Sequence record: PP261279.1
Reading direction: 5' to 3' (one strand)
Length of the DNA stretch: 64,000 nucleotides
Source: Escherichia phage ECP2303
Shown here: positions 1 through 38,768 of the stretch, in pieces
Layout of the letters: each line of letters opens with the position of its first letter
How positions within the stretch are numbered: the first letter of the stretch is position 1
Notes under the pieces: generated by a model
Databases searched by the model: none
Seen by the model: only the letters and a program-made list of their open reading frames with translations
Told to the model about the DNA's origin: nothing
Program-made: the position numbers and the translations under genes

Positions 1-110
1 TGACACTTTTGCCACTTTTGACACTTTTACCTTTGACACAATGTCACACAATATGCCATAATCTGACACCTTATACACTTTCGACACAATAACGACTGTT
101 ATTATTTCAT
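1..110. repeat. iteron-like cluster of (T)GACAC direct repeats
   Basis: Direct reading: tgacac/gacac recurs about six times in ~100 bp with one inverted copy (gtgtca); non-coding. Confidence 0.5.
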
Positions 111-189
111 GTTTCATTGTTCACGTATAGACTATTCCCGCATAGACTGTTTACGCCTGGATAGTTTACACCTTGACAGTTTACACAAA

Positions 190-440
190 GATGATAAGCC
201 ATGACATTCGTTTGCATGATAACAATTAACAAGTTAATAATATATGACATAATATAAAAGCAGGGCAACTATTAGCAGATCTATAGTTGCCTTGCTTGTT
301 ATGTCATGATTAACTAAATACAAGGCAACTATGATCTGATTAATAGATTGCAGACAAACTATCACGGGGGTGATTGTTACTGCTTTTATATTATGTCGCG
401 ACTCCGTCGCGCCATGCCATTCGTTTGCATAGTTGCCTTA
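190..440. repeat. nested inverted and direct repeats (candidate origin or operator region)
   Basis: catg(a/c)cattcgtttgcat occurs twice (~201 and ~415); inverted arms tatatgacataatataaaagcag / ctgcttttatattatgtcgcg; palindrome aaggcaactat...atagttgcctt; one copy of the GAGACAA-type motif at 351-370. Confidence 0.5.
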
Positions 441-1044
441 TTGTTACAGGTAAAACAATTACATTGTTAACTATTTCTTATCTTTCTCTTAGTCATCTAA
501 TGATTCCAGTCAGTATAGTTATGTGCAGTAAACATTAGACGACTAAAGATTTCTCTGATTATAGTAACCTATCGTGACAATTTAGGACTGTTTACGAAAA
601 ATGTTGACACTTGAGCTGATTTATGTTATGCAGTTTACACGAATAATTATTTTATGCAGGTATTGACTATTCCGTTATTCTGTGGTTGGAATAAATACTT
701 TGCAGGCTATAGAATGATGTGCGTACGTGAATTCTGAGATCTGGCGGCTATAGTTACACCCGATTTTTCACGTAGGACACGCTTTTGTGGTTGTGTAAGT
801 GTATGACTTATAAGGGTTTTTAATTGTTGACAGTATACTGAAGATGTGTATCAGGTTAAATTTTGTGCAATAGTTGCATTACGTGCATTTTTGGAAGGAA
901 AAACGTGTAAAAATGGCCCTGCTACCACACAATGAAAGATTATGCAATAGTTATTTTCCATGTATATTTGTACAGTATGTGGGATTGATGGCTAGTCAAT
1001 TATTCCACTTGCCAGGTAGGGCCGTTTATGGTAGGAGAAGAGCA

Positions 1045-1075
1045 GACAAAAAGAAAGGGGCCTTTAAGCCCCTTG
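1045..1075 (-). terminator. rho-independent terminator closing the leftward early operon
   Basis: Minus-sense hairpin aaggggcttaaaggcccctt followed by tttctttttgtc, immediately 3' of the CDS ending at 1093. Confidence 0.6.
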
Positions 1076-1092
1076 ATAATTCAGTTAAGAAA

Positions 1093-1512
1093 TTATAATG
1101 ATTCGTATATTTCAAAAATCCGATTTGCCAGGTCGTTACGGTAGCGGAATTTTTCCTCACGTTTGATCATAAGATCTTTATAGCCGTACTCTTTAAGCAC
1201 TTCATTAACTTTATGGCGGCATACTTTCATATTATCCTGCGCGTCACCAATAAATCTGTTGCTATGGTGCATGGCTTTAATTTCTTCTTCCAGGACCAGG
1301 GCAACTATGCGGACCGGATCAAGCTGATAGGCGGTAACATCCATGCGGCATTGTAAACGGCTTTTTACGTCTGCCACCGGATATACTGCAACCTCTTCCC
1401 CGTCAACATTGACAATAATTAGTTTACCATCGATTTCGAATCCTTTCGCCGCCGGACCGTGACAAAAAGCGTTATCAAAGCTATATGCCGGATTATTAGA
1501 TTTAATGTTCAT
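1093..1512 (-). CDS. hypothetical protein
   Basis: 139-aa ORF; AAGAGG RBS 7 nt upstream of ATG; last gene before the terminator. Confidence 0.7.
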   Translation of the reverse strand: MNIKSNNPAYSFDNAFCHGPAAKGFEIDGKLIIVNVDGEEVAVYPVADVKSRLQCRMDVTAYQLDPVRIVALVLEEEIKAMHHSNRFIGDAQDNMKVCRHKVNEVLKEYGYKDLMIKREEKFRYRNDLANRIFEIYESL

Positions 1513-1656
1513 GGTGTTTTTACCTCTTAGTTAATTTTCTTACAACTTCCCTTCAAAAAAGAATATAGCAAAACTGCCGATCCCTGTCAACCAGGGATAG
1601 CATAATTTTTATGTGATCAAGGGGCTTTATTGCCCCTGACCATGTAACTTGTTGTA

Positions 1657-1920
1657 TTATTTGTTGCTCATCCAGTTTTCCCAAGCTGCCTGATAATCTG
1701 CCTCACTACGGCGGATCTCTTCTTGCTCTTCAAGGCGGATCTCTTCTTCCAGGTACCCCAAGATGTCAGCCTTTTTAGTCTGGCGTAGCATCCAGTCATC
1801 TTTTTTGCGAGTGAAGATCTTATAAGCTTTCTCGCAAACCTCTTTTTTGCTACCTTTCTGGACTTCAAGAACACGATAAGCCATATATTGAACTAATTTG
1901 AGCTGATCAAGACGTTTCAT
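1657..1920 (-). CDS. hypothetical protein (charged, helical)
   Basis: 87-aa ORF; RBS aaagaggtaaacatc-ATG; preferred over the overlapping same-strand frame 1668..1874. Confidence 0.65.
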   Translation of the reverse strand: MKRLDQLKLVQYMAYRVLEVQKGSKKEVCEKAYKIFTRKKDDWMLRQTKKADILGYLEEEIRLEEQEEIRRSEADYQAAWENWMSNK

Positions 1921-1980
1921 GATGTTTACCTCTTTGTGCGGTTCTGATTAGTGGGCCTTTTGGCCCGTGTCATTATCTTA

Positions 1981-2253
1981 TTACTTATGGCGGCAGAATT
2001 CAAGCGTTTTTAATTGATAATCTTCCTCAGCCTGGAGTACGACCGCCTCGATCATTTCGTTGGCATTGTTAAAGCCATAACCTTTAGCGAACTCATCCGC
2101 GCCACCTTCGTGATCATGTTCTGCGTTCATCGCTTCCACAAAATGGAATTCCAAATTGTTGAGGTAGGGGCTTGATGTTCCGTCCTCTTTTTCGATGAGA
2201 TCCCAAATAGCATTAAAACGTGATTCGACTTCTTGATTAATCCAGCTTGACAT
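1981..2253 (-). CDS. hypothetical protein
   Basis: 90-aa ORF; RBS ggagagagg upstream of ATG. Confidence 0.7.
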   Translation of the reverse strand: MSSWINQEVESRFNAIWDLIEKEDGTSSPYLNNLEFHFVEAMNAEHDHEGGADEFAKGYGFNNANEMIEAVVLQAEEDYQLKTLEFCRHK

Positions 2254-2470
2254 AGTGTTTTCCTCTCTCCTGGTTGTTGTGTGGGCACTTTTGCCCCTTC
2301 AAGATAAATGTTACCTCACCCCATGGCAGATGTCAACGGTTTTTATAGTTCTTATATGACAGGCAGGCCCGGTGATTGTCTCCCCCTGTTCCCAAGTGCC
2401 GCCCGTTTAATAAGAATAGCAAAAGGGGCCGAACAAGTCAACCCCAAAATCAGTACCAAAACACTTTTAT

Positions 2471-2782
2471 TTATACGGTCCGATCATTGGCCTTTGTCCA
2501 GGACCTGGCGATCCGTTTCCCGGTCACCTGGAACGGAGGCTGCATTGTGTGTAATGAGTCCAGAGTAAGGGAGGACCGTTTACGGCGTATCTTCAGGATC
2601 GCTAACGTATTGTCCATCTCACGGCCAGGTCCTGGGCGGTATGGTGTGCCTCCAGCGTTAAGGTTGATGATCTCATGTATTGAGATCCGGCGTTGTTTTG
2701 CTTCCGCATCTTTGAAGATAGCCAGCGGAGGCGCTATGCGTTGCCGATACCAATCTAAAACGGTTGGCGTAATAGCGATCAT
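2471..2782 (-). CDS. hypothetical protein
   Basis: 103-aa ORF; weak RBS; start overlaps the next gene's stop; lies downstream of a promoter-like and motif-bearing intergenic region. Confidence 0.4.
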   Translation of the reverse strand: MIAITPTVLDWYRQRIAPPLAIFKDAEAKQRRISIHEIINLNAGGTPYRPGPGREMDNTLAILKIRRKRSSLTLDSLHTMQPPFQVTGKRIARSWTKANDRTV

Positions 2783-2970
2783 ATTTTACCCCCTATGTAG
2801 TCCGGTCGGTTTTTCTCTGTCATACGCTTAAGCAATTCTTGCATGTTGCTTATGGCTTGTAGTGTATCCTCTTCAAGGGATGAATCAAGATAATCAGGAT
2901 CATTCTTCACCTTGCAATGATTATGATAACGCAGTACCGCCAGTACTTTTTTAACTTCTTCCGCTGTCAT
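2779..2970 (-). CDS. hypothetical protein
   Basis: 63-aa ORF; 4-nt overlap with the downstream gene, typical translational coupling. Confidence 0.55.
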   Translation of the reverse strand: MTAEEVKKVLAVLRYHNHCKVKNDPDYLDSSLEEDTLQAISNMQELLKRMTEKNRPDYIGGKI

Positions 2971-2978
2971 TATCGCGC

Positions 2979-3113
2979 CTAAAACAATGAGTTAATATAT
3001 AACACCAGATCGCTGACTACCAGGACAACATTAATCAGCACATACCTAACCATAAAGGGAAAGATCGCCAACATTGCCGCCACGATCCCCATGGTAATAA
3101 TTATCTTTCTCAT
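2979..3113 (-). CDS. small hydrophobic membrane peptide (44 aa)
   Basis: Hand translation MRKIIITMGIVAAMLAIFPFMVRYVLINVVLVVSDLVLYINSLF; below the ORF-track size cut-off; fills the gap between flanking genes. Confidence 0.4.
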   Translation of the reverse strand: MRKIIITMGIVAAMLAIFPFMVRYVLINVVLVVSDLVLYINSLF

Positions 3114-3115
3114 GG

Positions 3116-3400
3116 TTAACGGTTCACGTAAGTTTTCCCGTTCACGGTTATGGGCAGATCCTCCAGGTCTGGATCTTCCTTAAGGTCGCGAGCAAGCTCA
3201 CCGCACCGGATACCCTCGAATCCGTAGTACTCTGTTGTGCCGTCCTTAAAAGTTTTAGCGGCAAGGCATAAGCGATAAGTAACCCCGATTTGATTGACGG
3301 CATGAATATCCGTTAGATTAACCTCTTTTGCCAGCTCTTTAGCCATTACAGGCGCATTAAGTCCAACAACCAGGGTAACCACTGCGATCATCTTTTTCAT
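3116..3400 (-). CDS. secreted/periplasmic small protein with N-terminal signal peptide
   Basis: MKKMIAVVTLVVGLNAPVMA signal-peptide-like N-terminus; RBS aagagg. Confidence 0.65.
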   Translation of the reverse strand: MKKMIAVVTLVVGLNAPVMAKELAKEVNLTDIHAVNQIGVTYRLCLAAKTFKDGTTEYYGFEGIRCGELARDLKEDPDLEDLPITVNGKTYVNR

Positions 3401-3491
3401 TGTGTCTATCCTCTTTCTGCTACGTTTAAGGCGGCGGTAACCGCCTGTTTATGCTTTGTTGGTTAATTTTCAGGTATCTGTATAAATTAAA

Positions 3492-3707
3492 CTATGCTGT
3501 ACGCTCAACTATAACAACGGTTTGGGGGATCTCCCCTTCCACCACTAGTAAGGCCTTTTTCTGCGTGATAGATATCTTTACCCGTTGCAGCGTGGCGGTG
3601 AAGTCTTTCATTTCGTCACGCGGTGTTTTAGTGCAGTACCAGATCTCAGGCTTGCCGATCTGTAAGTTGCGTAAAAATTCCGTTTTGCCTGTTTTGTTAG
3701 TGATCAT
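3492..3707 (-). CDS. hypothetical protein
   Basis: 71-aa ORF; RBS gtgagg upstream. Confidence 0.6.
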   Translation of the reverse strand: MITNKTGKTEFLRNLQIGKPEIWYCTKTPRDEMKDFTATLQRVKISITQKKALLVVEGEIPQTVVIVERTA

Positions 3708-3716
3708 TTGCCAACC

Positions 3717-3821
3717 TCACCCGATACCGTTGGAAGACAAGATCATATTAGACATGGTTGCAATCAGGCCAATACCCAGGGCAATAACCAAGATCACTGC
3801 ATCGATTAATTTCTGTTTCAT
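3717..3821 (-). CDS. small membrane peptide (34 aa)
   Basis: Hand translation MKQKLIDAVILVIALGIGLIATMSNMILSSNGIG; stop overlaps the RBS of the next gene. Confidence 0.35.
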   Translation of the reverse strand: MKQKLIDAVILVIALGIGLIATMSNMILSSNGIG

Positions 3822-3898
3822 GGTGTTTATTCTCTTCTGTTAGTAACCTTATTCATGGGGCCGCTACCACAGCCCCAGGGTAAGGCAGCTATGTGCTT

Positions 3899-4144
3899 TT
3901 AGTGTTTCATTCCAACCATCGCGGCACGGATCGCCGTAGTGCTGTACTTGAAGCCGTCCGGGGTCTTATCTTGTCCGGTTAGCTCCAGAAAAAGCATCAT
4001 ATCCCGCGCCGCATCATTACGATTAGCATTGGCGTTAATAAAGCCTTGGGCCAACCGGTACAATGACTCATCGTTATTAATCCAAAGGCTTACATTCCAA
4101 TGAGTTTTGTTTTTGTAACCGTTATAACCTTTATTGCTTTTCAT
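3899..4144 (-). CDS. hypothetical protein
   Basis: ORF-track frame 3899..4225; start moved to the internal ATG (MKSNKG...) preceded by aagaggtaaacacc, the RBS context shared by neighbouring genes. Confidence 0.6.
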   Translation of the reverse strand: MKSNKGYNGYKNKTHWNVSLWINNDESLYRLAQGFINANANRNDAARDMMLFLELTGQDKTPDGFKYSTTAIRAAMVGMKH

Positions 4145-4231
4145 GGTGTTTACCTCTTCTTTGTTCCAGGTGGCGGACCATTCCACCGCCTTATGTATTA
4201 TGCTTTGTAAGATGGCTGTTGTCAAACTATT

Positions 4232-4411
4232 TTAACGATAATCATCGTACGCTTTATTAACCTGGCGGATATAACATTCAAAAGCCAGATCAATAGATTT
4301 ATATTCACGGATATACTCACCATAGGAAACCACATACATTTCTATAGCTTCCTCATATGCGAGGAGAATAGAATCTAAGCCTACGATCTCAGTCTTTGCA
4401 ATAATAGCCAT
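4232..4411 (-). CDS. hypothetical small protein (59 aa)
   Basis: Hand translation MAIIAKTEIVGLDSILLAYEEAIEMYVV...; RBS aagaggataaaaatc-ATG. Confidence 0.45.
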   Translation of the reverse strand: MAIIAKTEIVGLDSILLAYEEAIEMYVVSYGEYIREYKSIDLAFECYIRQVNKAYDDYR

Positions 4412-4486
4412 GATTTTTATCCTCTTTGTAGTTGGTGGGGTTCGTTGCCCCCTTTGATTTATATATTACAGTCTTATATGGTCATG

Positions 4487-4720
4487 TCAACTATTTTCAA
4501 AAAATTTTTCTGCTGTGATATTCTTCCCGGTAGGGTTCGCTACTTTCAAAATTTTATCATGCACTGGACGCCCAAAAGAATAAGCGCCGTACACAGTAAA
4601 CCAATAATCGCCGTCAGGTTGTACTATTACTGCCGCATATGGTACGCCTTTTTCGTTTTTGCTGACAAAATAGATCACGTTGCCATTAATAGCCTCGGCG
4701 CGTTTAATTTGTTCCATCAT
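4487..4720 (-). CDS. hypothetical protein
   Basis: 77-aa ORF with RBS. Confidence 0.65.
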   Translation of the reverse strand: MMEQIKRAEAINGNVIYFVSKNEKGVPYAAVIVQPDGDYWFTVYGAYSFGRPVHDKILKVANPTGKNITAEKFFENS

Positions 4721-4775
4721 GATGATTTGCCTCTCTTTATTTTCATAATTGGGGGCCTTTTCGGCCCCGCCAGGT

Positions 4776-5060
4776 TTATTTATTGATAGCGTGCAGCGGG
4801 AAAGCTACGCCAGGTTGATAAATAACCTTTACAACCTCATCAGGACAAAAGAAGTTGCAGAACTCACCGCAATAGGCCTCATCCTCTTTCAACTCTTCAT
4901 CAACATACTCAAAAAAGTAGTCGATGCTTGGATAATCCTGGCCGTGATTATAGTCAACCATCGTTAATAATAACTCTTGATCATTCCGTAGGATGTGCAT
5001 ACCCGCTTTTAAGTATTTTGCTTCCATTTCTACTACATTGCCAGCGGTAACAATAGCCAT
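4776..5060 (-). CDS. hypothetical protein
   Basis: 94-aa ORF; RBS aggag. Confidence 0.65.
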   Translation of the reverse strand: MAIVTAGNVVEMEAKYLKAGMHILRNDQELLLTMVDYNHGQDYPSIDYFFEYVDEELKEDEAYCGEFCNFFCPDEVVKVIYQPGVAFPLHAINK

Positions 5061-5189
5061 GATTTTAACTCCTATCTATCTGGTCAACGATTGGGGGCCT
5101 CCCCCTCGACAACTCTTATTATCCATATTGTCGGGAATGATGCAAGTACTTCTTTAAAAATTTTTTAAGCGCCCCGTATGCCGTTGTAA

Positions 5190-5228
5190 CGCCAAAATAA
5201 TAAAGGCCATGCAACCGCATGGCCTTTA
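5190..5228 (-). terminator. rho-independent terminator
   Basis: Minus-sense hairpin aaaggccatgcggttgcatggccttt followed by attatttt, downstream of the CDS ending at 5263. Confidence 0.5.
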
Positions 5229-5262
5229 TGTGATTATATTGCTGTAGGCCCTGCCTGGGGCC

Positions 5263-5613
5263 TTATTTTGCATTCTTGCCTGTATTGCCGCCACGGTACC
5301 AGCGTTTGCGGTGAAAATGGTAATAATCACCCTCGGCATTAAACATCAGATGATTTTCAATAACCAGCTTACGAAGGTGGGCCGGATCTTGTTCCATTCT
5401 TGCCAGATTCCGGCGGCTGTTACGTAAGCGTATAAATTCCATATTCAGGCCGTTGATTGCAGCATGGATGTCAAAGTAACCACCTTTGAGACGTTCACGC
5501 ATGGCGTTAAGCTCAACACAATATACAGATTTCTCACAAATCAAGGTATTAGCTAGGGCGCGGACCTGGGCAAGGGGGTTAAGCTCATTAAGGTAATATA
5601 GTTTGACTTTCAT
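5263..5613 (-). CDS. hypothetical protein
   Basis: 116-aa ORF. Confidence 0.65.
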   Translation of the reverse strand: MKVKLYYLNELNPLAQVRALANTLICEKSVYCVELNAMRERLKGGYFDIHAAINGLNMEFIRLRNSRRNLARMEQDPAHLRKLVIENHLMFNAEGDYYHFHRKRWYRGGNTGKNAK

Positions 5614-5630
5614 AAAATCGCCTGCTGAAA

Positions 5631-5930
5631 TTAGTTTGAGAAAACATCGTTCACAATAGCGATCACAATGCCGCCCACCTTGTCACGGTCAGCAATGCAC
5701 AAATCACCATGGATCATGCGGTAGTCTGGATGATCTTTCACAGAATAGTCAATAAGTGTTTTCTTGTCGTCCAGCTTCGTAACTTCCATTCTCATAACGA
5801 TATGAGAATCATCAAAGGCATTATTCCGAAAAGTCATAGCCTGACCGCCAGGGCACCCGGTGATCTCAACTTCCACGCCGTCTACGATCTGACCATCAAA
5901 GAAATAGAGATTATTGGCGGGTATAAACAT
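5631..5930 (-). CDS. hypothetical protein
   Basis: ORF-track frame 5631..5951; start placed at the ATG (MFIPANN...) with 8-nt spacing from aaggag. Confidence 0.6.
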   Translation of the reverse strand: MFIPANNLYFFDGQIVDGVEVEITGCPGGQAMTFRNNAFDDSHIVMRMEVTKLDDKKTLIDYSVKDHPDYRMIHGDLCIADRDKVGGIVIAIVNDVFSN

Positions 5931-5974
5931 GATCATTGCTCCTTTTTGCACTGATTATTTTAACAGGGTTTAAA

Positions 5975-6020
5975 TTTACTTTATTGATGGCCCTGGAGTC
6001 AAGGCCATCTAAAAATAAAT
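5975..6020. repeat. 45-bp conserved intergenic repeat, copy 1
   Basis: tttactttattgatggccctggagtcaaggccatctaaaaataaa, near-identical at 9692 and 10313; contains hairpin gatggcc...ggccatc; directly 3' of a minus-strand stop. Confidence 0.7.
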
Positions 6021-6021
6021 T

Positions 6022-6222
6022 TTACAGATCTACAATCTCTTTAATTCGTTTTACTGCTGCCTCAGCGCCTTGAGGGTAGAAATTATGATAACCAATCACG
6101 CGGGTAATACTGATCGCCGCTTGGTGGTCCTCGTAGTCGCCTTTGAATATTTCTTGACCATCAACCAGCACAGCAATTTTTTCTTCTTTTTTGAAGTTAA
6201 TAACGCGGATATTGTTGCTCAT
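6022..6222 (-). CDS. hypothetical protein
   Basis: 66-aa ORF; RBS aaaaggagaaacaaa-ATG. Confidence 0.65.
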   Translation of the reverse strand: MSNNIRVINFKKEEKIAVLVDGQEIFKGDYEDHQAAISITRVIGYHNFYPQGAEAAVKRIKEIVDL

Positions 6223-6367
6223 TTTGTTTCTCCTTTTGGAACTTTGTCTGTGTGGTGGGGAGTGTCTCCCCGTTGATTGTTATTATCCATATTCTGGACC
6301 GGATTGCAACACTCAGGAAGAAAAATTTTTTGAAAAAAGTTAGGCCCCCAGGGATCGGGGGCCGTTA

Positions 6368-6487
6368 TCAGTTGCTTACAGCGATAAAATACATCCCTAC
6401 GCCTAACAATATTTCAAGGGCGATGATCTCAAGCCATACCATAACACGGCGCGCCTTATCGGTGCGGGGCTTATCCTTGGTTGTCAT
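6368..6487 (-). CDS. small membrane peptide (39 aa)
   Basis: Hand translation MTTKDKPRTDKARRVMVWLEIIALEILLGVGMYFIAVSN; RBS gggggag. Confidence 0.35.
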   Translation of the reverse strand: MTTKDKPRTDKARRVMVWLEIIALEILLGVGMYFIAVSN

Positions 6488-6596
6488 CGTCTCCCCCTTC
6501 CCTCCTGCTAGCAGTTACGTGGTTTGCAATGGCCCCCAGTAGTCCGATCACGACACACATCGCAAGAAAAATTATCTCTCCCGTTGTTCGATCCAT
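6471..6596 (-). CDS. small membrane peptide (41 aa), alternative to 6508..6729
   Basis: MDRTTGEIIFLAMCVVIGLLGAIANHV... with RBS gagagg; overlaps 6508..6729 in another frame, so only one is likely real. Confidence 0.3.
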   Translation of the reverse strand: MDRTTGEIIFLAMCVVIGLLGAIANHVTASRREGGDDDNQG

Positions 6597-6729
6597 TGTT
6601 ATAAAACCTCTCAAGATCAGGCCTAAAAGTAAATCTTTCGTTATTGAATCCGTCACGCCAGGCGGCTGGCTTCAAATCTTCACTAAATGGATTAATTAAC
6701 GTGGCATTATTTAAACGGTTGGCCCACAT
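6508..6729 (-). CDS. hypothetical protein, alternative to 6471..6596
   Basis: MWANRLNNATLINPF...; RBS gagagg; C-terminal part is low complexity. Confidence 0.25.
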   Translation of the reverse strand: MWANRLNNATLINPFSEDLKPAAWRDGFNNERFTFRPDLERFYNNGSNNGRDNFSCDVCRDRTTGGHCKPRNC

Positions 6730-7078
6730 ATTTTCTATTCCTCTCAAATAAGCGATCCGCCTCAGTTAAACAAATCTCATGGGCGTGATCTCTGGTTTTA
6801 GCTTCATCGAAAACCTGTTGTGCAAGGCTGCAACGTAGGGAGACTGGGAGATCACTATAATAGGCGTTGACAAACGTTTGAGCGTCGTACAGGTCTGAAA
6901 ATACTTTACCCTTTCTATTATTCCCCTTGTCAACAATTGCAAGGATAACCAATACAATAGTTGCAACCACCCCCAGGAAAATAGATATAATAAACCATAA
7001 AAAGGCGGATCTCCCCATCTTGCCAGCGATCCAGGCGTTAAACAAGGCAACCAATATAGCCAAAATAATAAATTCCAT
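6707..7078 (-). CDS. membrane protein (two predicted TM helices)
   Basis: ORF-track frame 6707..7111; start moved to MEFIILAILVALF... preceded by aaagagg; hydrophobic N-terminal half. Confidence 0.6.
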   Translation of the reverse strand: MEFIILAILVALFNAWIAGKMGRSAFLWFIISIFLGVVATIVLVILAIVDKGNNRKGKVFSDLYDAQTFVNAYYSDLPVSLRCSLAQQVFDEAKTRDHAHEICLTEADRLFERNRKYVGQPFK

Positions 7079-7142
7079 TCTATGTACCTCTTTTACAGTT
7101 CTGATCAACAATAAGGCGGCAAATATGCCGCCTGTTACCTGA

Positions 7143-7523
7143 TTAAAAATTATCGCCGTAAATCTTTCCGCTTTCTACCCATACCACCACGCGAGGCATA
7201 CTATCCCACACGTCTTGTTTTAGATTGAGCGCGTGCAATTCTTCGGTGGTGCTCATACCGGGCACGGGCTGATTGTATACTGCAAAACGACCACCCGCAT
7301 AATCATAGGCCAGGGTTAAATCACACTGGATCATCTTTTTGATCATGGCATTAAGCATGGCGTTAGCCGCATACTGATCACGTTTTAAAGGCAACTCTTT
7401 GATTAGTTTGCGATAGTTTTCGATATGGTCGCACACTGTTTCACGCGGAAGATCTTTCATATCTTCACGGAATGTAACCAGGTTAAACATAACGGTGTCA
7501 ATAGCCTTGGTAGTGGTTTTCAT
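7143..7523 (-). CDS. hypothetical protein
   Basis: 126-aa ORF; RBS aaagaggataaaatc-ATG. Confidence 0.65.
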   Translation of the reverse strand: MKTTTKAIDTVMFNLVTFREDMKDLPRETVCDHIENYRKLIKELPLKRDQYAANAMLNAMIKKMIQCDLTLAYDYAGGRFAVYNQPVPGMSTTEELHALNLKQDVWDSMPRVVVWVESGKIYGDNF

Positions 7524-7612
7524 GATTTTATCCTCTTTGTTTTGTGTGGGGCAAGACGTTTGCCCCTTGAGTTTTTAATATAGCAGGTTTTTAGATTATT
7601 GCAACACTTTAT

Positions 7613-8236
7613 TTATGAAAAACTCATCTCCCCATATTCATCCACATCAAACCGCCAATCATTGGCCTCGATAAGGCCGATCAAGTATTCTGCGGTGAAC
7701 TGTTCTAGATAGGCCTCCTCCAGGTCTACGTAAACCTTGCGGGATAGCTCCCGTACCGTCTCGGTGATCAGTTCTTCCAGGTCTTCCACTTTGTTTTCTT
7801 GTTTGGCGGTCAGATCTAGCCAAGTGGTATCAATGTACCCGCTTACAGTGTTTTCATGGCTGTAATGGCTGTACTTGTCGCGTTCAACACTGGCTGATAA
7901 CTCGCCATCGTGCATTGTGCCGAACAAGTGACGAATTGATCTGAACTTGGTCAGGGCCTTGACTTTACGCAAAAATTTTTCTAAATCCACGTTTTCAGCA
8001 CTGATTGACGCGCCGTCACCCTGGCACCAAAAGCCGGACCAATGTACTTCGGTATCTTCAAGGCCGTACTCTGGAAAAACTTGTTCTTTATAGTATTCAA
8101 TTACATTTTCTGCGAAAAAATCATCCCCGCTGCGTTCTTCTCTTTCGCGGACCATTTCAATGGCTTTTTCTTTTTGTTCGTCGGTTAGCACGTCGAAAGA
8201 TAAATTGTAACCTGTGGTAATGTTAACGGTGGTCAT
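7613..8236 (-). CDS. hypothetical acidic protein
   Basis: 207-aa ORF with RBS. Confidence 0.7.
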   Translation of the reverse strand: MTTVNITTGYNLSFDVLTDEQKEKAIEMVREREERSGDDFFAENVIEYYKEQVFPEYGLEDTEVHWSGFWCQGDGASISAENVDLEKFLRKVKALTKFRSIRHLFGTMHDGELSASVERDKYSHYSHENTVSGYIDTTWLDLTAKQENKVEDLEELITETVRELSRKVYVDLEEAYLEQFTAEYLIGLIEANDWRFDVDEYGEMSFS

Positions 8237-8310
8237 GATATTTTCTCCTGTTTTCTTTGTTAGTGGCGGGAAGTTTTCCCGCCTGTGTGTTTAATTATAC
8301 TTATTGAGAT

Positions 8311-8571
8311 TTACTTGTCAACACTATTTTTTAAATTATTGTGGCGCAAAATGTTTAAAATCTCCTCAACGTCATCAACACGGCGGCAATTTTTAAACGC
8401 TACCAATTGCCCCATGATTTTAATCACTGGGCGGCCTTGCCAGTGACCCTGGAGAAAGCGCGCCTTGACTTTATCGGTGGAACTATCACGCCACCAAATA
8501 GCCTTGTTGTTGCAGTAGTAAAAATTATTCAGGATAACATCAACTTTATCAAAATTTTTTAATTTACGCAT
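8311..8571 (-). CDS. hypothetical protein
   Basis: 86-aa ORF; first gene downstream of the promoter at 8604-8631. Confidence 0.65.
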   Translation of the reverse strand: MRKLKNFDKVDVILNNFYYCNNKAIWWRDSSTDKVKARFLQGHWQGRPVIKIMGQLVAFKNCRRVDDVEEILNILRHNNLKNSVDK

Positions 8572-8603
8572 GGCGTTTACTCCTTTCTCTCTTTGATGTG
8601 GTT

Positions 8604-8631
8604 AGTATAGCTAACCTGTTGACGATGTCAA
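8604..8631 (-). promoter_or_regulatory. sigma70-like promoter
   Basis: Minus-sense TTGACA-16 nt-TATACT; overlaps palindrome ttgacgatgtcaa. Confidence 0.55.
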
Positions 8632-8749
8632 TGATATTTTTAACGCCATAAAACGGCCCTGGGCGATGTTTTCAGGTTAAGGGGGGCGATTGCATAGGTG
8701 GGGGCCTTTTTGGCGCTTACAGGGCCAACCAGGGGCGCTATTAGTAGGA

Positions 8750-8782
8750 TAGAAATAAAAAGCCCCGCACAATGGCGGGGCG
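8750..8782 (-). terminator. rho-independent terminator
   Basis: Minus-sense hairpin gccccgccattgtgcggggc followed by tttttatttc. Confidence 0.6.
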
Positions 8783-8789
8783 TTGGTTG

Positions 8790-8987
8790 TTATTTGTCTT
8801 TATGGCGATATCGTTCTGCCTGTCGTTCACGTTCCAAAAGTAGGCCGGGCAATTTACGATCATAATGATTGCGCCAGATCTTCCCAAACCTTTTTGGCTT
8901 ATTCAGTTTATTGTTACGCTGGCGGCGTTCTGGCAGCTCTTCGGAATCATGAGGGCGCTTTACAATTTTCTCGAAATTAATTTTCAT
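8790..8987 (-). CDS. hypothetical basic protein
   Basis: ORF-track frame 8790..9011; start placed at MKINFEK... with RBS aagggggg; ends just before the terminator. Confidence 0.45.
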   Translation of the reverse strand: MKINFEKIVKRPHDSEELPERRQRNNKLNKPKRFGKIWRNHYDRKLPGLLLERERQAERYRHKDK

Positions 8988-9330
8988 ATCTTCCCCCCTT
9001 GCTAACTTCAATATTGGCCTGAATAGCCCGGATGCGGCGCTTTATAACTTCCTGATCTGTGTGGTCGTATCCCCAAAAGTCTACAATTTTTGCGCCACCC
9101 GCTTCCAGGCGGTATAGTGTTTCCTGCATTTTGTAAGCCGGGATCGGTCGCGGTGTTACTTGGTCGCCTTCTTTATTTTTATACTTTATAATATAATCTT
9201 CGTTATCGTTGAATGCCCAAAATGGATATTCTGCAAGGGCGGTACTTCCTCTTTCCTTTTTATCCTGGATCTTATTTACAATTAAAGCCGTAGCAATAGC
9301 GCCAATAATAAAACTAGCCCCGCTAATCAT
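8977..9330 (-). CDS. membrane-anchored protein (N-terminal TM segment)
   Basis: MISGASFIIGAIATALIV... hydrophobic N-terminus; RBS aaaggagaaag. Confidence 0.65.
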   Translation of the reverse strand: MISGASFIIGAIATALIVNKIQDKKERGSTALAEYPFWAFNDNEDYIIKYKNKEGDQVTPRPIPAYKMQETLYRLEAGGAKIVDFWGYDHTDQEVIKRRIRAIQANIEVSKGGRYEN

Positions 9331-9406
9331 GTGTACTTTCTCCTTTCATGGTGTTAATAAATTATCTTTATAGATGGCCCTGCAACCAGGACCACCGAAA
9401 AAATAA

Positions 9407-9652
9407 CTATTTCACAATGCCTACAAAACAGATCCCGCCTTCACCTATGTAAGCAATATCGGTAACTTTATAATTTGTCAAGATCTGTTTATTTAGTTCA
9501 TTAATAAAATCGGTCATTGCGTTGGTGTAGTTGTCTTCCATATCTAAGGCATAATCCCAGGCGTAAGCCTTTTTACGTCCGAAGCCTTTTACCATGATAC
9601 GGGCGCTTTTGGTGTTGGTGGGCGCATAATATTTGGTGATTAGTGCTGCCAT
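9407..9652 (-). CDS. hypothetical protein
   Basis: 81-aa ORF; RBS gaggag. Confidence 0.6.
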   Translation of the reverse strand: MAALITKYYAPTNTKSARIMVKGFGRKKAYAWDYALDMEDNYTNAMTDFINELNKQILTNYKVTDIAYIGEGGICFVGIVK

Positions 9653-9691
9653 GGTTTTAACTCCTCATTAGTTCAGTGTTAACAGTGTAAA

Positions 9692-9741
9692 GTTTACTTT
9701 ATTGATGGCCCTGGAGTCAAGGCCATCTAAAAATAAATTTA
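9692..9741. repeat. 45-bp conserved intergenic repeat, copy 2
   Basis: Same sequence as 5975-6020; directly 3' of the gene ending at 9739. Confidence 0.7.
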
Positions 9742-10080
9742 CTCGTTTTCTTCCAGCTCTGAAAGCTCTTCTTTCACTTCTTCGAGCTCTGTCTGCAATT
9801 CTTGGTACTCTTCATCGTCCTCAATATCCAGGCTGTCGATGTAGTCGCTAAATCCGCAGCGGTAAGCGATAGGATCTAGCTCCTTGAGGATACGCGACGG
9901 AAGAAAAGAAATGTTTCCGATCATAATTTCGCCGTAGATCTCGTCTAACCATTCATCATAGTTTTCGTCGTACTTGTCCTCGTCGATTTCAAAGTTATCG
10001 ATCTTGTTCTCAAGGTCTGCGATCTGTTTTTTCAGCGCGGCGATCTGCATAGCTTTTTCTGCGGCGGTCATAGTAGTCAT
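9739..10080 (-). CDS. highly acidic coiled-coil protein (DNA-mimic candidate)
   Basis: 113 aa, rich in D/E with heptad-like segments (ELEEVKEELSELEENE). Confidence 0.65.
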   Translation of the reverse strand: MTTMTAAEKAMQIAALKKQIADLENKIDNFEIDEDKYDENYDEWLDEIYGEIMIGNISFLPSRILKELDPIAYRCGFSDYIDSLDIEDDEEYQELQTELEEVKEELSELEENE

Positions 10081-10159
10081 GGTGTTTTCTCCTTTTGTGT
10101 GTTCTGGGAAGTTTTCCCGTTTACGTGTTTAAGTATACCGATTTGGGTTAGCTTGTCAA

Positions 10160-10279
10160 TTAAAAATTTAAGAAAAATTTTGCAAAACTGTTGGCGCTAC
10201 TCATTAACATTTGCGCCAGGATGTAACCGACAACGCAAACGATAATAGTTACCTTTGTGTATTGGCGTGTAGTGCTCAT
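10160..10279 (-). CDS. small membrane peptide (39 aa)
   Basis: Hand translation MSTTRQYTKVTIIVCVVGYILAQMLMSSANSFAKFFLNF; RBS aaggggg. Confidence 0.35.
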   Translation of the reverse strand: MSTTRQYTKVTIIVCVVGYILAQMLMSSANSFAKFFLNF

Positions 10280-10312
10280 CTTAAAGCCCCCTTTTTCGCT
10301 TAGTTGAGACTA

Positions 10313-10358
10313 GTTTACTTTATTGATGGCCCTGGAGTCAAGGCCATCTAAAAATAAA
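10313..10358. repeat. 45-bp conserved intergenic repeat, copy 3
   Basis: Same sequence as 5975-6020; directly 3' of the gene ending at 10360. Confidence 0.7.
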
Positions 10359-10359
10359 C

Positions 10360-10764
10360 TTAGTAAGTTTTCAGTACTTTACCGTCCAACCTGTCAAGCT
10401 GGATCTCGATAGCTGCAGAAAACCTATTGTACACCACGTCGCCCATAGAATCCAACCAATCTATGACGTTATACACCTGCTCTTTGTTCTTACAGGTCCG
10501 GATCCGTTTCATGATGTAAGCCGGATCAATATTGGTACTCTCGTCGGTGTTCCCCTGTACCTGGTTTGCCGTATTAGTTACATCTTTAATGGCCTTTACC
10601 ACCACCTGGAAGGGCTTTAAGGTACCTTTTGCGTTCATCTCACGCGCTTTTGCGGCGCGGTTGTTATATGTTACACAACGGCGGCAAATGTTGATCAAAT
10701 GCATGTCAATAATTTTTTCATCGTTTGCCAGTTCATTCATGATGCGGCGTACGTTCTTATTCAT
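10360..10764 (-). CDS. hypothetical protein
   Basis: ORF-track frame 10360..10863; start moved to MNKNVRR... with RBS aaaggaaaaaagatc-ATG. Confidence 0.6.
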   Translation of the reverse strand: MNKNVRRIMNELANDEKIIDMHLINICRRCVTYNNRAAKAREMNAKGTLKPFQVVVKAIKDVTNTANQVQGNTDESTNIDPAYIMKRIRTCKNKEQVYNVIDWLDSMGDVVYNRFSAAIEIQLDRLDGKVLKTY

Positions 10765-10847
10765 GATCTTTTTTCCTTTGTGTTGGCGGGAAACATTCCC
10801 GCCTTTTGTGCCCAGTTTACTTGAATTTTGCAGCGTGTCAACAATTT

Positions 10848-11246
10848 TTATTCGTGGGCGCATGTTACAATGTGCTTTTTATAGCCCAGGCGGTCAGCAA
10901 GTGCCGACAAAAACTCTTCTTCGTAGATCCAGCCGTCGGCAGTGATCCCCATAGCATTTAATGCGCTCTCAAGTGCTGCGTTGGCTTTATCATAACCGTG
11001 ACCGCTCGCCTTGCCTCCAGTATAGCCGTACTTATTGTTCTTGTTGTCGTGTATCCAAAAAACGCAGTAGTGAGTGTTCCCGCTGGCGGCGGCATAATAC
11101 CGGATCTCAGCTACTTCGTGCAAATTATTGTCATCGTCCAGGCCCACCAGATTATAAGCCTTGTAAAATCCACGATCACGGCGGCAGTTCTTGACATCAG
11201 AAAAAGAAAAGTCCGCATTATCAAAATTAAAGGTAGTGGTTTTCAT
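10848..11246 (-). CDS. hypothetical protein
   Basis: 132-aa ORF. Confidence 0.65.
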   Translation of the reverse strand: MKTTTFNFDNADFSFSDVKNCRRDRGFYKAYNLVGLDDDNNLHEVAEIRYYAAASGNTHYCVFWIHDNKNNKYGYTGGKASGHGYDKANAALESALNAMGITADGWIYEEEFLSALADRLGYKKHIVTCAHE

Positions 11247-11310
11247 GATTTTATCCTCTTAGTGTCTTTTGTGCTTTTAGTGTATTTGGTGTCGGACTGT
11301 ATGTCAATAC

Positions 11311-11508
11311 TTATTTTTTATTAAACCAGTGGTTGATCTGGCCTTTTGTCAGGGCGCAACGATTAAGCTGTTGCCGAGTATAGCTCTGACCGCGACGGAA
11401 TTTATAAAGGCCTTGCCCGTTGTTGATGGTTACATCCACCCGGCAAACCATTTGATCGGTGACCACCTGGCGAGTGTTGCGACGTACTTTGATTCCGTAG
11501 GCGTTCAT
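11311..11508 (-). CDS. hypothetical basic protein
   Basis: 65-aa ORF; RBS agagaggataaaaaatc-ATG. Confidence 0.6.
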   Translation of the reverse strand: MNAYGIKVRRNTRQVVTDQMVCRVDVTINNGQGLYKFRRGQSYTRQQLNRCALTKGQINHWFNKK

Positions 11509-11561
11509 GATTTTTTATCCTCTCTGTTAATTGGTGTGGTGTTGTTCACCTTGCGAGGATA

Positions 11562-11590
11562 AGAATAACAATAACTGTACGAGCTGTCAA
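11562..11590 (-). promoter_or_regulatory. sigma70-like promoter
   Basis: Minus-sense TTGACA-17 nt-TATTCT upstream of the gene starting at 11508. Confidence 0.35.
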
Positions 11591-11770
11591 CCATTAGTTA
11601 GAATTATTTTTTTTGGGCAGAATTCTCCAGCCGCCGCCCCTACCAGGTTAACCATCGTTTTTTCGTACTCTTCTTTATGTTCCAACGCTCCCGCCATAGC
11701 CTTTTCAACCAGGGCGATAGCCTCAGCGTCATTAATCGCTACATTTCCAGGGGATCAAATTACCTTTCAT
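11588..11770 (-). CDS. possible small gene with frameshift or non-ATG start
   Basis: Strong RBS gaggagg then ATG opens a 12-codon frame (MKGNLIPWKCSD); the +1 frame continues as protein-like ...NDAEAIALVEKAMAGALEHKEEYEKTMVNLVGAAAGEFCPKKIILTNG. Confidence 0.2.
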
Positions 11771-11960
11771 TTTTGTACCTCCTCTTCAATTGTTACCTGC
11801 CCTATAGCATAGGCCTACCAGGTTTGCAAGCTTTCACTCTCTCCTACCTGGTCAGTCAGGTCCTGCCAGGTTGGCCCCGCCAGGTTGCAACGGTTAGCGC
11901 ATCAGGTTAGAATTTTTTTGAAAAGTGTTGACAGCGGCCCCGCCAGGTGGCACAATATAC
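11640..11960. repeat. dispersed CCAGGTT iterons plus two AGGTTAGAATT-T-run elements
   Basis: ccaggtt at ~11643, 11818, 11866, 11880 (caggtt 11903, ccaggtg 11945); aggttagaatt with T-run at ~11596 and ~11905. Confidence 0.45.
11928..11958 (+). promoter_or_regulatory. candidate sigma70-like promoter, plus strand
   Basis: TTGACA-17 nt-CACAAT; followed by the GAGACAA-CACCGGGG motif. Confidence 0.35.
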
Positions 11961-11989
11961 CTATCGGAAGGACGGCAGGCACCGGTGAC

Positions 11990-12009
11990 GGGGGAGACAA
12001 CCACCGGGG
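11990..12009 (+). promoter_or_regulatory. conserved motif GGGGGAGACAACCACCGGGG
   Basis: Close copies at 12126-12144 (same strand), 2368-2386 (opposite strand) and 351-370 (degenerate). Confidence 0.45.
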
Positions 12010-12071
12010 ATGGGCGCTGCATAAAATGAGAACGGTTATCATTATCATTTAAAAATTTATGCAAAAAATCC

Positions 12072-12102
12072 TTGCTTTCTTTGTCCTGTGTGATACTATA
12101 AT
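12072..12102 (+). promoter_or_regulatory. candidate extended -10 sigma70 promoter, plus strand
   Basis: TTGCTT-16 nt-TACTAT(AAT) with TG one nucleotide upstream of the -10. Confidence 0.4.
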
Positions 12103-12125
12103 AACAAGCCGGGGCAACAGGGGCC

Positions 12126-12144
12126 GGGAGACAATCACCGGGGG
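12126..12144 (+). promoter_or_regulatory. conserved motif GGGAGACAATCACCGGGGG
   Basis: Second tandem copy, ~35 nt downstream of the 12072 promoter, followed by gagaatgattatcatt as in copy 1. Confidence 0.45.
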
Positions 12145-12217
12145 TGCCCGTTATTCTGCAAACGAGAATGATTATCATTCAAAATTCTAAATGAGAACTT
12201 TTCGCATTTCATAAATT

Positions 12218-12231
12218 TAGTTAGCATGCTA
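12218..12231. promoter_or_regulatory. perfect 12-bp palindrome TTAGCATGCTAA (operator-like)
   Basis: Read directly in non-coding DNA. Confidence 0.3.
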
Positions 12232-12304
12232 ATTACCTACCGTGACAATTCTATATAAAATAATACCTCCTTAAATATTTCCATATACAAATTTTAAAAA
12301 TCCA

Positions 12305-12480
12305 TTTCCGAAAACGAAAAATCGATTTCGTCCCCAAAAATTTCAGGTCGAGCTCCGGAACGATTTCCAGAAAATCTGATTCAGAAAACGAAAAACAGAT
12401 CGAGTACTAAGAAATTTATCGAGAAAAATTTTCAGAAAATTCAATCTTTGAAACGAAAAACAGATCGAGTACTGAGAGAG
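12305..12480. repeat. three degenerate ~66-74-bp tandem repeats
   Basis: Units begin gaaaacgaaaaa at ~12310, 12384, 12450; units 2 and 3 share cagatcgagtact(a/g)ag. Confidence 0.55.
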
Positions 12481-12631
12481 ATGTATCAAAACCTACTGAG
12501 AATAATGGGCTTATTGTTATAAAAGGTCAAAGGTAAGCTGGGAAAGTTCTGGTAGAAGGGTGAGGGTATGTGCGGAAAATCTGGAATAGTAACTTAAAGT
12601 ACGGTGCGAACGATAGAATGAGCAGCACATC

Positions 12632-38745: not shown

Positions 38746-38768
38746 TCTGTTGAGACAATTGATACGAT
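38740..38768 (+). promoter_or_regulatory. sigma70-like promoter for the rightward operon
   Basis: TTGACA-17 nt-TACGAT. Confidence 0.55.

Follow-up and report, generated by a model that had tools for sequence, protein, structure and literature searches.

A short sequence with the core GAGACAA-N-CACC recurs directly behind sigma70-like promoters in at least five phage groups, and it is probably an undescribed leader signal acting on transcription. We have analyzed this motif in a stretch of 64,000 nucleotides (the window) of Escherichia phage ECP2303 (PP261279.1), which is 100% identical to the record PP464953.1 of Escherichia phage ECP2309, an rV5-like Vequintavirus with a genome of 136.9 kb (window position = record position minus 459). 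Three copies, here called c1, c2 and c3, were found in the genome, all of them in annotated intergenic DNA (Table 1). On balance we favor, tentatively, the reading that the motif is a cis-acting leader element of host sigma70-type promoters that would control elongation close to the promoter.

Occurrence of the motif and its position relative to promoters

The whole genome (136,863 bp, reassembled from the window and three further stretches) was scanned for matches to GGAGACAANCACCGGGG by number of mismatches, and the counts were compared with those in 100 block shuffles. The three copies are the sole matches with up to three mismatches (0, 0 and 1 for c1, c2 and c3), whereas the shuffles gave no hit at all with at most one mismatch; the expectation is 0.05 at two mismatches and 0.56 at three. 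An earlier scan had returned three matches at three mismatches against 1.09 expected, a count that understates the signal because all three matches are near-perfect. A profile hidden Markov model built from 54 motif instances likewise recovered the three copies only (E = 3e-10, 2e-9 and 4e-6), the next match in the genome having an E-value of 1.8. The mismatch scan and the profile thus agree that the copies listed in the initial annotation at 11990-12009 and 12126-12144 (plus strand) and at 2368-2386 (minus strand) are real, and the comparison with shuffled sequence, which that annotation had itself put forward as a possible refutation, places the frequency of the motif above expectation, with three near-perfect copies against none at one mismatch or less. 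Two further occurrences on its list did not hold up. The 'degenerate' fourth copy at 351-370 requires a 3-nt insertion, is missed at up to four mismatches as well as by the profile, and belongs to a local hairpin, ATCACGGGGGTGAT. The occurrence near 38753, GAGACAAT, is a bare 7-8-mer at chance frequency: the genome has 19 GAGACAA sites where 18.5 are expected. The copies c1 and c2 form a tandem duplication, 134-136 nt apart, in which a downstream palindrome is included.

The motif comprises 12-17 bases, usually with G runs at the sides of the core. Base counts over 53 distinct promoter-associated instances revealed that GAGACAA-N-CACC is essentially invariant and that the flanks diverge. The N position is occupied by A (25 instances), T (23) or C (5), the base after CACC is G in 48/53, and the four bases 5' of the core are mostly G. 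A semi-conserved second block, W-G-S-N-Y-G-Y, follows 5 nt 3' of CACC. The few variants of the core are included in Table 1.

The position of the motif relative to the promoter is equally constrained. All 54 distinct low-GC instances lie 19-39 nt 3' of a TATAAT-like box on the same strand; the distance from the -10 box to the start of the core is 37 nt for c1, 26 nt for c2 and 30 nt for c3, and 22-24 nt for nearly all copies in an uncultured ~45-kb phage family. The motif is always sense-oriented and 3' of the -10 box; in the predicted transcript it falls at about +17 to +35. For the c2 promoter, both the -35 and -10 boxes are kept and the spacer is divergent in CR3, SSE121, KpS8, Kashira and Mt1B1_P17. 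Only three of the dozens of early promoters in this genome carry the motif.

Table 1. Sequences and positions of the motif copies, promoters and accompanying elements (window positions, unless a locus is named)
Feature	Sequence	Position	Strand	Basis or remark
Copy c1	GGAGACAACCACCGGGG	11993-12009	+	sequence, mismatch scan, profile
Copy c1 with flanks	core GAGACAACCACC at 11994-12005	11975-12020	+	
Copy c2	GGAGACAATCACCGGGG	12127-12143	+	sequence, mismatch scan, profile
Copy c2 with flanks	core GAGACAATCACC at 12128-12139	12108-12155	+	
Copy c3	GGAGACAATCACCGGGC	2383-2367	-	sequence, mismatch scan, profile
Copy c3 with flanks	core GAGACAATCACC at 2382-2371	2358-2406	-	
Rejected fourth copy		351-370	+	recovered by neither mismatch scan nor profile
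Promoter of c1, sigma70-like	TTGACA-17-CACAAT, TG-extended	11928-11956	+	kept in rV5-like contigs
Promoter of c2	TTGCTT-18-TATAAT	12072-12101	+	read from sequence
Promoter of c3	TTGACT-17-TATTCT	2413-2441	-	promoter scan
Second promoter, between c3 and gene 2253-1981	TTGACA-17-TAACAT	2308-2336	-	annotated P168 in rV5 reference
Fur-box-like palindrome after c1		12024-12047	.	repeat families D4 and D6; kept across genera
Fur-box-like palindrome after c2	GAGAATGATTATCATTCAA	12160-12183	.	repeat analysis; kept across genera
Palindrome	TTAGTTAGCATGCTAA	within 12216-12235	.	sequence
Three imperfect 65-74-nt direct repeats	core GAAAACGAAAAACAGATCGAGTACT	12297-12480	.	repeat analysis
Sigma54-type sequence after motif		L265 ~1535-1551; L266 ~1524-1540		Pseudomonas phages
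GC-rich non-coding element	GCCACCCCACGGCGAAAAGGCGGGGCUAAC...AUCGCCGGUAGCUCG	L042 ~545-640; also L045, L043, L044, L046		Serratia, Klebsiella, Cronobacter, Salmonella phages
Second promoter class		L021 370-400 and 880-910 (minus-strand reading); L195		uncultured family
Rare core variant	AAGACAAACACC			Kashira
Rare core variant	AAGATAATCACC			ukendt
Rare core variant	GAGTACAAAACACC			KpS8
Rare core variants	GAGGCAAACACC and ...CACT			uncultured family
Rare core variant	...CACG			C11

Distribution among phages and hosts

Pattern scans and BLAST showed that the c2 unit is kept throughout the Vequintavirinae (CR3, KaOmega, SSE121, KpS8, Kashira), and it is found as well in the phi92-like phage Mt1B1_P17 and in Aeromonas phage PhAER-3. 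The c3 unit is kept in rV5, in phi92-like phages (ukendt) and in CR8. Moreover, the motif is carried by the Pseudomonas phages C11 (a Pakpunavirus) and ventosus, where it again lies antisense within a gene-free gap, of 630-700 bp, and by the metagenomic contigs L023 and L028. The uncultured family (contigs of ~42-47 kb such as IMGVR_UViG_3300027123_000194), together with a contig of 215 kb, has at least 4-5 copies per contig, and here the order is terminator hairpin, TATAAT box, motif, second promoter and small gene. The groups with the motif are therefore at least five: rV5-like, phi92-like, Aeromonas PhAER-3, Pakpunavirus/ventosus and the uncultured family. The initial annotation had described the motif as non-coding, promoter-proximal and conserved, and this description is borne out by the annotated intergenic positions, the promoters on the motif's own strand and the presence in several unrelated phage groups; a sequence with these three properties is expected to be functional.

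An exact-match scan of 596 Gb of bacterial genomes, which is blind to degenerate sites, yielded 13 hits, all of them coding-like chance matches in unrelated taxa and none in Enterobacteria. The matches in high-GC metagenomes likewise look like chance coding hits. A BLASTP comparison of the ECP2309 proteins with 134 kb of loci from the other families yielded no common protein. The latter result speaks against a phage regulator dedicated to the motif, and rather for a component of the host or a signal that is intrinsic; together with the lack of a bacterial copy, it suggests that the reader is universal, for instance RNA polymerase.

Mode of action

The sense orientation, the fixed short distance to the promoter, the invariance of a 12-13-mer in phages of Escherichia, Aeromonas, Pseudomonas and of unknown hosts, the lack of a host copy and the failure to detect a common protein are accommodated most simply if the motif is a signal that is read by the transcription complex. 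We therefore consider control of elongation the best of the available readings, although only tentatively. The motif would be read during transcription in the form of nascent RNA, of the exposed non-template strand, or of both; the polymerase would pause at CACC^G, which would impose a promoter-proximal pause or a decision between elongation and termination, and the pause would then alter downstream transcription. Such a job would be similar to that of the nut, put and ops elements and of hairpin-stabilised leader pauses. Here we infer the transcript starts (as predicted), the pausing at CACC^G and the effect on downstream transcription.

The elemental pause consensus is G-10/Y-1/G+1. With the pause placed at the last C of CACC, G-10 and C-1 are present in 53/53 instances and G+1 in 48/53, and the core as we read it fits this consensus. 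In a his-type pause, the RNA hairpin ends about 11 nt upstream of the 3' end at the pause. By eye, the bases just 5' of the core make up the 3' arm of a small hairpin ending at the core, and these candidate hairpins, which are not significant against shuffled or slid controls, end 12 nt 5' of the last CACC base. They are of two types. The first includes CACCG-GUGA-CGGGG (c1), CUUG-GGAA-CAGG (c3), CACCUG-GCGA-CGGGUG and CACUA-GAGAA-UGGUG, and the second, c2-type, CCGG...CCGG (the c2 flanks), CCAG...CUGG, CGGG...CCCG, GCGA...UCGC and CGCA...UGCG. Their loops are often GNRA (GUGA, GCGA, GGAA). Compensatory changes were noted by eye between close relatives (CCGG/CCGG versus CCAG/CUGG) and in other genera (GCGA/UCGC, CGCA/UGCG, CGGG/CCCG), and outer pairings are possible for c1 (GCAGGC/GCGCUGC) and c3 (ACGGGCGG/CCUGCCUGU). 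The segment 5' of the core can instead pair with the downstream CACC(GG), and the 5' end with the 3' block. The 51-nt fold of c1 has a z-score of -3.18. A nested RNA model, with an outer helix around a CCGG/CCGG helix, was dropped, as its register shifts between lineages and RNAalifold does not recover it.

Several observations weigh against control of elongation. Both the transcription starts and the pausing are predictions. The c1 and c2 transcripts have the opposite sense to the adjacent genes, and no obvious gene lies downstream for them to control. A pause requires far less conservation than is seen, and the other approximately nine invariant bases must be read by something. The window copies lack the U-run that follows many copies of the uncultured family. 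Moreover, RNA structure finds no statistical support: RNAalifold gave three invariant G-C pairs (-0.6 kcal/mol) for one alignment and none for the other, the candidate hairpin is 60-64% paired, which is no better than in shuffled or slid controls, mean folding z-scores are -0.6 to -0.7, and the stem length is 3.44, little above the 2.93 obtained with shuffled upstream sequence. A GGKG:CACC helix does not vary across the instances. The window gave no hit at the gathering score of Rfam 15; the segment 11900-12300 stayed at E >= 2.7, and nine related loci gave none at E <= 0.5. A structured RNA is possible but unproven. The initial annotation had left the choice between a binding site for a regulator and an RNA element; the orientation and some compensatory changes favor the transcription-coupled or RNA side, whereas covariation and folding are not significant.

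A double-stranded DNA operator would account for a conserved sequence in which structure is not demonstrable. A host or phage protein would then occupy a 12-17-bp site just past the start and block or activate the promoters; one use would be to silence some of the early promoters. The W-G-S-N-Y-G-Y block 5 nt past CACC would resemble the second half of a bipartite site, and sequences that look like protein sites directly follow the motif, Fur-box-like here and sigma54-like (TGGCAC-N5-TTGCA) in the Pseudomonas phages. Against this, the site lacks symmetry, is single and always has one orientation, and the paired changes in its flanks would be superfluous for a DNA site. BLASTP detected no phage protein common to the groups, and sites of a host regulon were not seen in the exact-match scan, blind as that is to degenerate sites. 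Taken together, we regard an operator as a realistic but less probable rival.

The antisense position of c1 and c2 relative to all their neighbours, without an open reading frame (ORF) downstream, could also mean that the motif belongs to a tiny gene for a non-coding RNA of ~45-60 nt, in which GAGACAANCACC, a conserved single-stranded stretch, would act in trans, either as a seed that pairs with a target RNA or, for a host protein, as a decoy or sponge. A U5-6 run follows within 8-12 nt of many copies in the uncultured family, and in the Enterobacterial phages the transcript could be cut short by the Fur-box-like site ~20 nt past the core. In Pseudomonas phages, short RNAs that come from 5' untranslated regions are common, as ONT-cappable-seq has shown (bioRxiv 10.1101/2023.10.13.562163), which is in line with such a gene. 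Nevertheless, the U-run is missing in several copies of the uncultured family and after c1, c2 and c3, so that these have no intrinsic terminator or attenuator, and where it is present the terminator scan does not call it. TTGTCTC, the complement, shows no enrichment in the phage genome (19 observed versus 18.5 expected), and c3 and the copies of the uncultured family precede genes of the same orientation, as leaders do. This explanation, too, is a realistic rival of lower probability.

Less probable still is a patch of homology at cassette boundaries that moves with mobile promoter modules of the PeSL kind and has no regulatory role of its own. Both c3 and the copies of the uncultured family lie in terminator-promoter composites bordering small early genes, and a copy of the uncultured family and those of rV5 and KpS8 are alike over ~25-45 nt, as expected for a transferred module. 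Yet 12 invariant nucleotides stand beside divergent bases across phages of Escherichia, Aeromonas and Pseudomonas, and so few of the early promoters carry the motif that we think this explanation improbable.

Conservation of c1 and c2 as part of a minus-strand protein gene (ORF 11894-12178, gp193/ORF198 in the rV5 reference) can practically be dismissed: an antisense ORF of 77-98 codons does cover the motif in the window, rV5, KaOmega, SSE121, KpS8, CR3 and L128 and is annotated in NC_011041, but the two copies of the motif fall in different frames of translation (GDCL versus PVVVS), genera differ in frame and start, Mt1B1_P17, Kashira and PhAER-3 have a short ORF or none, no such ORF is annotated in the ECP2309 record, and c3 and all copies in other families are intergenic. 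The 94-codon ORF itself is, in view of the frame inconsistency, probably not a gene.

A number of known sites were considered by eye and dropped: CsrA GGA sites, T4 RegB GGAG sites (SSE121 and Mt1B1_P17 carry GCGAG), CRISPR-repeat mimicry (the motif is unlike type I-E or I-F repeats), the integron attC core, and IHF, DnaA and CRP sites. Inspection by eye also led us to reject a G-quadruplex, as the four G-runs are not conserved, and a sigma54 promoter in the upstream module, for which the spacing is wrong.

Relation to known elements and significance

The put sites of phage HK022 bring about protein-independent antitermination through the beta' zinc-binding domain. More specifically, putL begins at transcript position +3, acts on the host RNA polymerase without a phage protein and carries a weak -10-like stretch, NANNAT, at +23 to +28 (PMC9378689). 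This precedent is an example of a 5'-terminal leader element that can reprogramme the polymerase without proteins, and thereby supports the reading of the motif as an elongation signal. Like put, the motif is a cis element immediately after early sigma70 promoters, with cores 19-39 nt past the -10 box, and in its T-variants GACAAT fits NANNAT at a similar position; about half of the copies, however, have A or C instead of the T that NANNAT needs. The put element is ~70 nt long, with two long stem-loops and an RNA triplex, whereas the motif has a 12-nt core with at most one or two short helices, no sequence similarity to put, and neither significant covariation nor a consensus fold.

The ops consensus is GGCGGTAGCGTG. 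Both ops and the motif are strongly conserved, orientation-specific sequences of 12-13 nt in operon leaders, but the core GAGACAANCACC is unrelated to the ops consensus, no RfaH-like reader for the motif was found, and the hosts of the phages are as different as Escherichia and Pseudomonas. The ops element is read on the non-template strand of the paused polymerase, as summed up in PMC9378689. The GACAA within the motif core is also reminiscent of the lambdoid nut boxB, as is the place of the motif a few tens of nt past early promoters. It is the sequence of the P22 boxB pentaloop. In boxB of the lambda/P22 type, a Watson-Crick pair closes a short stem around a GNRA-like pentaloop, with a boxA nearby and an N-type antiterminator protein. 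The would-be A-N closing pair of GACAA is not kept, N being A, T or C, and the conservation of the motif reaches well beyond a pentaloop. Neither a boxA nor an N-like protein turned up, with no search aimed at boxA or at N-like arginine-rich proteins. PeSL cassettes of T4-type phages combine a stem-loop, a promoter and a Shine-Dalgarno sequence (PMC4122927). The copy c3 and those of the uncultured family share their context, in which small early genes are bordered by a terminator stem-loop that abuts or overlaps an early sigma70 promoter, but PeSLs as described have no conserved element in the transcribed leader (PMC4122927).

No paper containing the motif string was found in the searchable literature. 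The papers on Certrevirus, PeSL, PAK_P3/PAK_P4 and ONT-cappable-seq do not describe the motif, and the published accounts of these phages mention sigma70-like promoters only. The virulent myoviruses of the rV5, phi92 and PAK_P1 groups are widely used in phage therapy, and past their sigma70-like early promoters the control of transcription is almost unknown. A short signal that spans host genera and stands at the start of selected transcripts would provide a direct experimental handle on how these phages programme the host polymerase, and would help to locate and dissect their probable replication origin. If the polymerase is indeed the reader, the motif would be a compact and portable regulatory part. 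It is a further, and at present unlikely, generalization that GAGACAA-N-CACC(G) is a widespread, hitherto unrecognised signal of the ops or put kind within the first ~30 transcribed nt, to be read directly by bacterial RNA polymerase or by a universally conserved elongation factor. Diverse virulent phages of Gammaproteobacteria would then use it to mark a subset of transcripts, including one that enters an origin-like locus, for pausing, antitermination or replication priming.

The non-coding locus around c1 and c2

The annotated genes of window 1-24000 are all on the minus strand. Both c1 and c2 are situated inside a gene-free gap of 930 bp (11698-12631) and directed against the flanking genes. 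The gap contains, in this order, promoter and motif, Fur-box-like palindromes, the TTAGTTAGCATGCTAA palindrome and three iteron-like repeats. The c1 and c2 promoters point towards these repeats, the core of which contains GATC. Relatives have repeats of the CGATCGAGAAC type at the same place, and the Pseudomonas phages of the CTGTCCAGTTCC type. Indeed, the order of the modules is kept among relatives and the modules themselves are swapped; in the Pseudomonas phages the iterons differ and a sigma54-like TGGCAC-N5-TTGCA replaces the Fur boxes. From this organization, by inference only, the gap resembles either an origin of replication that is activated by transcription or a master locus of regulation.

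By eye, GAGAATGATTATCATTCAA agrees with GATAATGATAATCATTATC at about 14/19 positions. The Fur-box-like palindromes are kept in phages of Cronobacter, Salmonella, Klebsiella, Serratia, E. coli (phi92-like) and Aeromonas, and in Aeromonas phage 2L372X they are present though the motif is missing. This suggests that the c1/c2 locus may be under the control of iron and Fur. A weaker Fur-box-like palindrome is found at 12189-12208. A scan of viral contigs anchored on the Fur-box-like sequence was inefficient (1/120 useful loci).

Some further elements of the locus deserve mention. Palindromic boxes of the form TTAGTTAG-N4-GCTAA(C) are common to this phage and to Pseudomonas phages C11 and ventosus and occupy the same place in the non-coding locus (window 12216-12235, L265 ~1747-1800, L266 ~1790-1830). 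The sequence that follows the motif is a near-perfect match to a sigma54-type promoter in C11 (CTGGCACGCTAATTGCA) and ventosus (TTGGCATAGGAATTGCA). Between 11859 and 11952 the window has three copies of GGCCCCGCCAGGT(T/G)GCA, the last of which occupies the spacer of the c1 promoter; these repeats could be a binding site controlling c1. A second conserved, GC-rich non-coding element (GCCACCCCACGGCGAAAAGGCGGGGCUAAC...AUCGCCGGUAGCUCG), which has its own promoter and is probably structured, lies just upstream of the c2-type unit and holds the place that c1 has in the rV5-like phages. It had no match in Rfam. Small plus-strand ORFs beside the c2-type unit are not kept between phage groups, and the window has none.

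The c3 locus and the uncultured family

The third copy lies in an intergenic space of 217 bp, and the three genes behind it are the last ones of the leftward early cluster. A terminator-like hairpin at 2445-2425 on the minus strand (GGGGTTGACTTGTTCGGCCCC followed by a T-run) holds the -35 box of the c3 promoter. The PeSL-type context, in which a terminator stem-loop and an early sigma70 promoter lie side by side where genes border, is therefore found for c3 and is absent from c1 and c2. At locus L195 of the uncultured family, terminators likewise overlap the -35 boxes, and a composite arrangement of terminator and promoter is seen at nearly every small gene of this family.

Window 1-700 is dense in short repeats (TGACACTTTT, GACAGTTTAC, GGCAACTAT...ATAGTTGCC), among which the rejected copy at 351-370 is located. 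Leftward and rightward transcription converge here, close to the ends of the record, and the region may be a terminus or packaging region.

Promoters of a second class, whose leader is conserved (TATAATGATCACATCAAGAC), also occur in the uncultured family, and TGTAAC-N5-6-TGTAA boxes are located between the motif and these promoters. The arrangement points to two putative temporal classes of promoters in tandem before each small gene.

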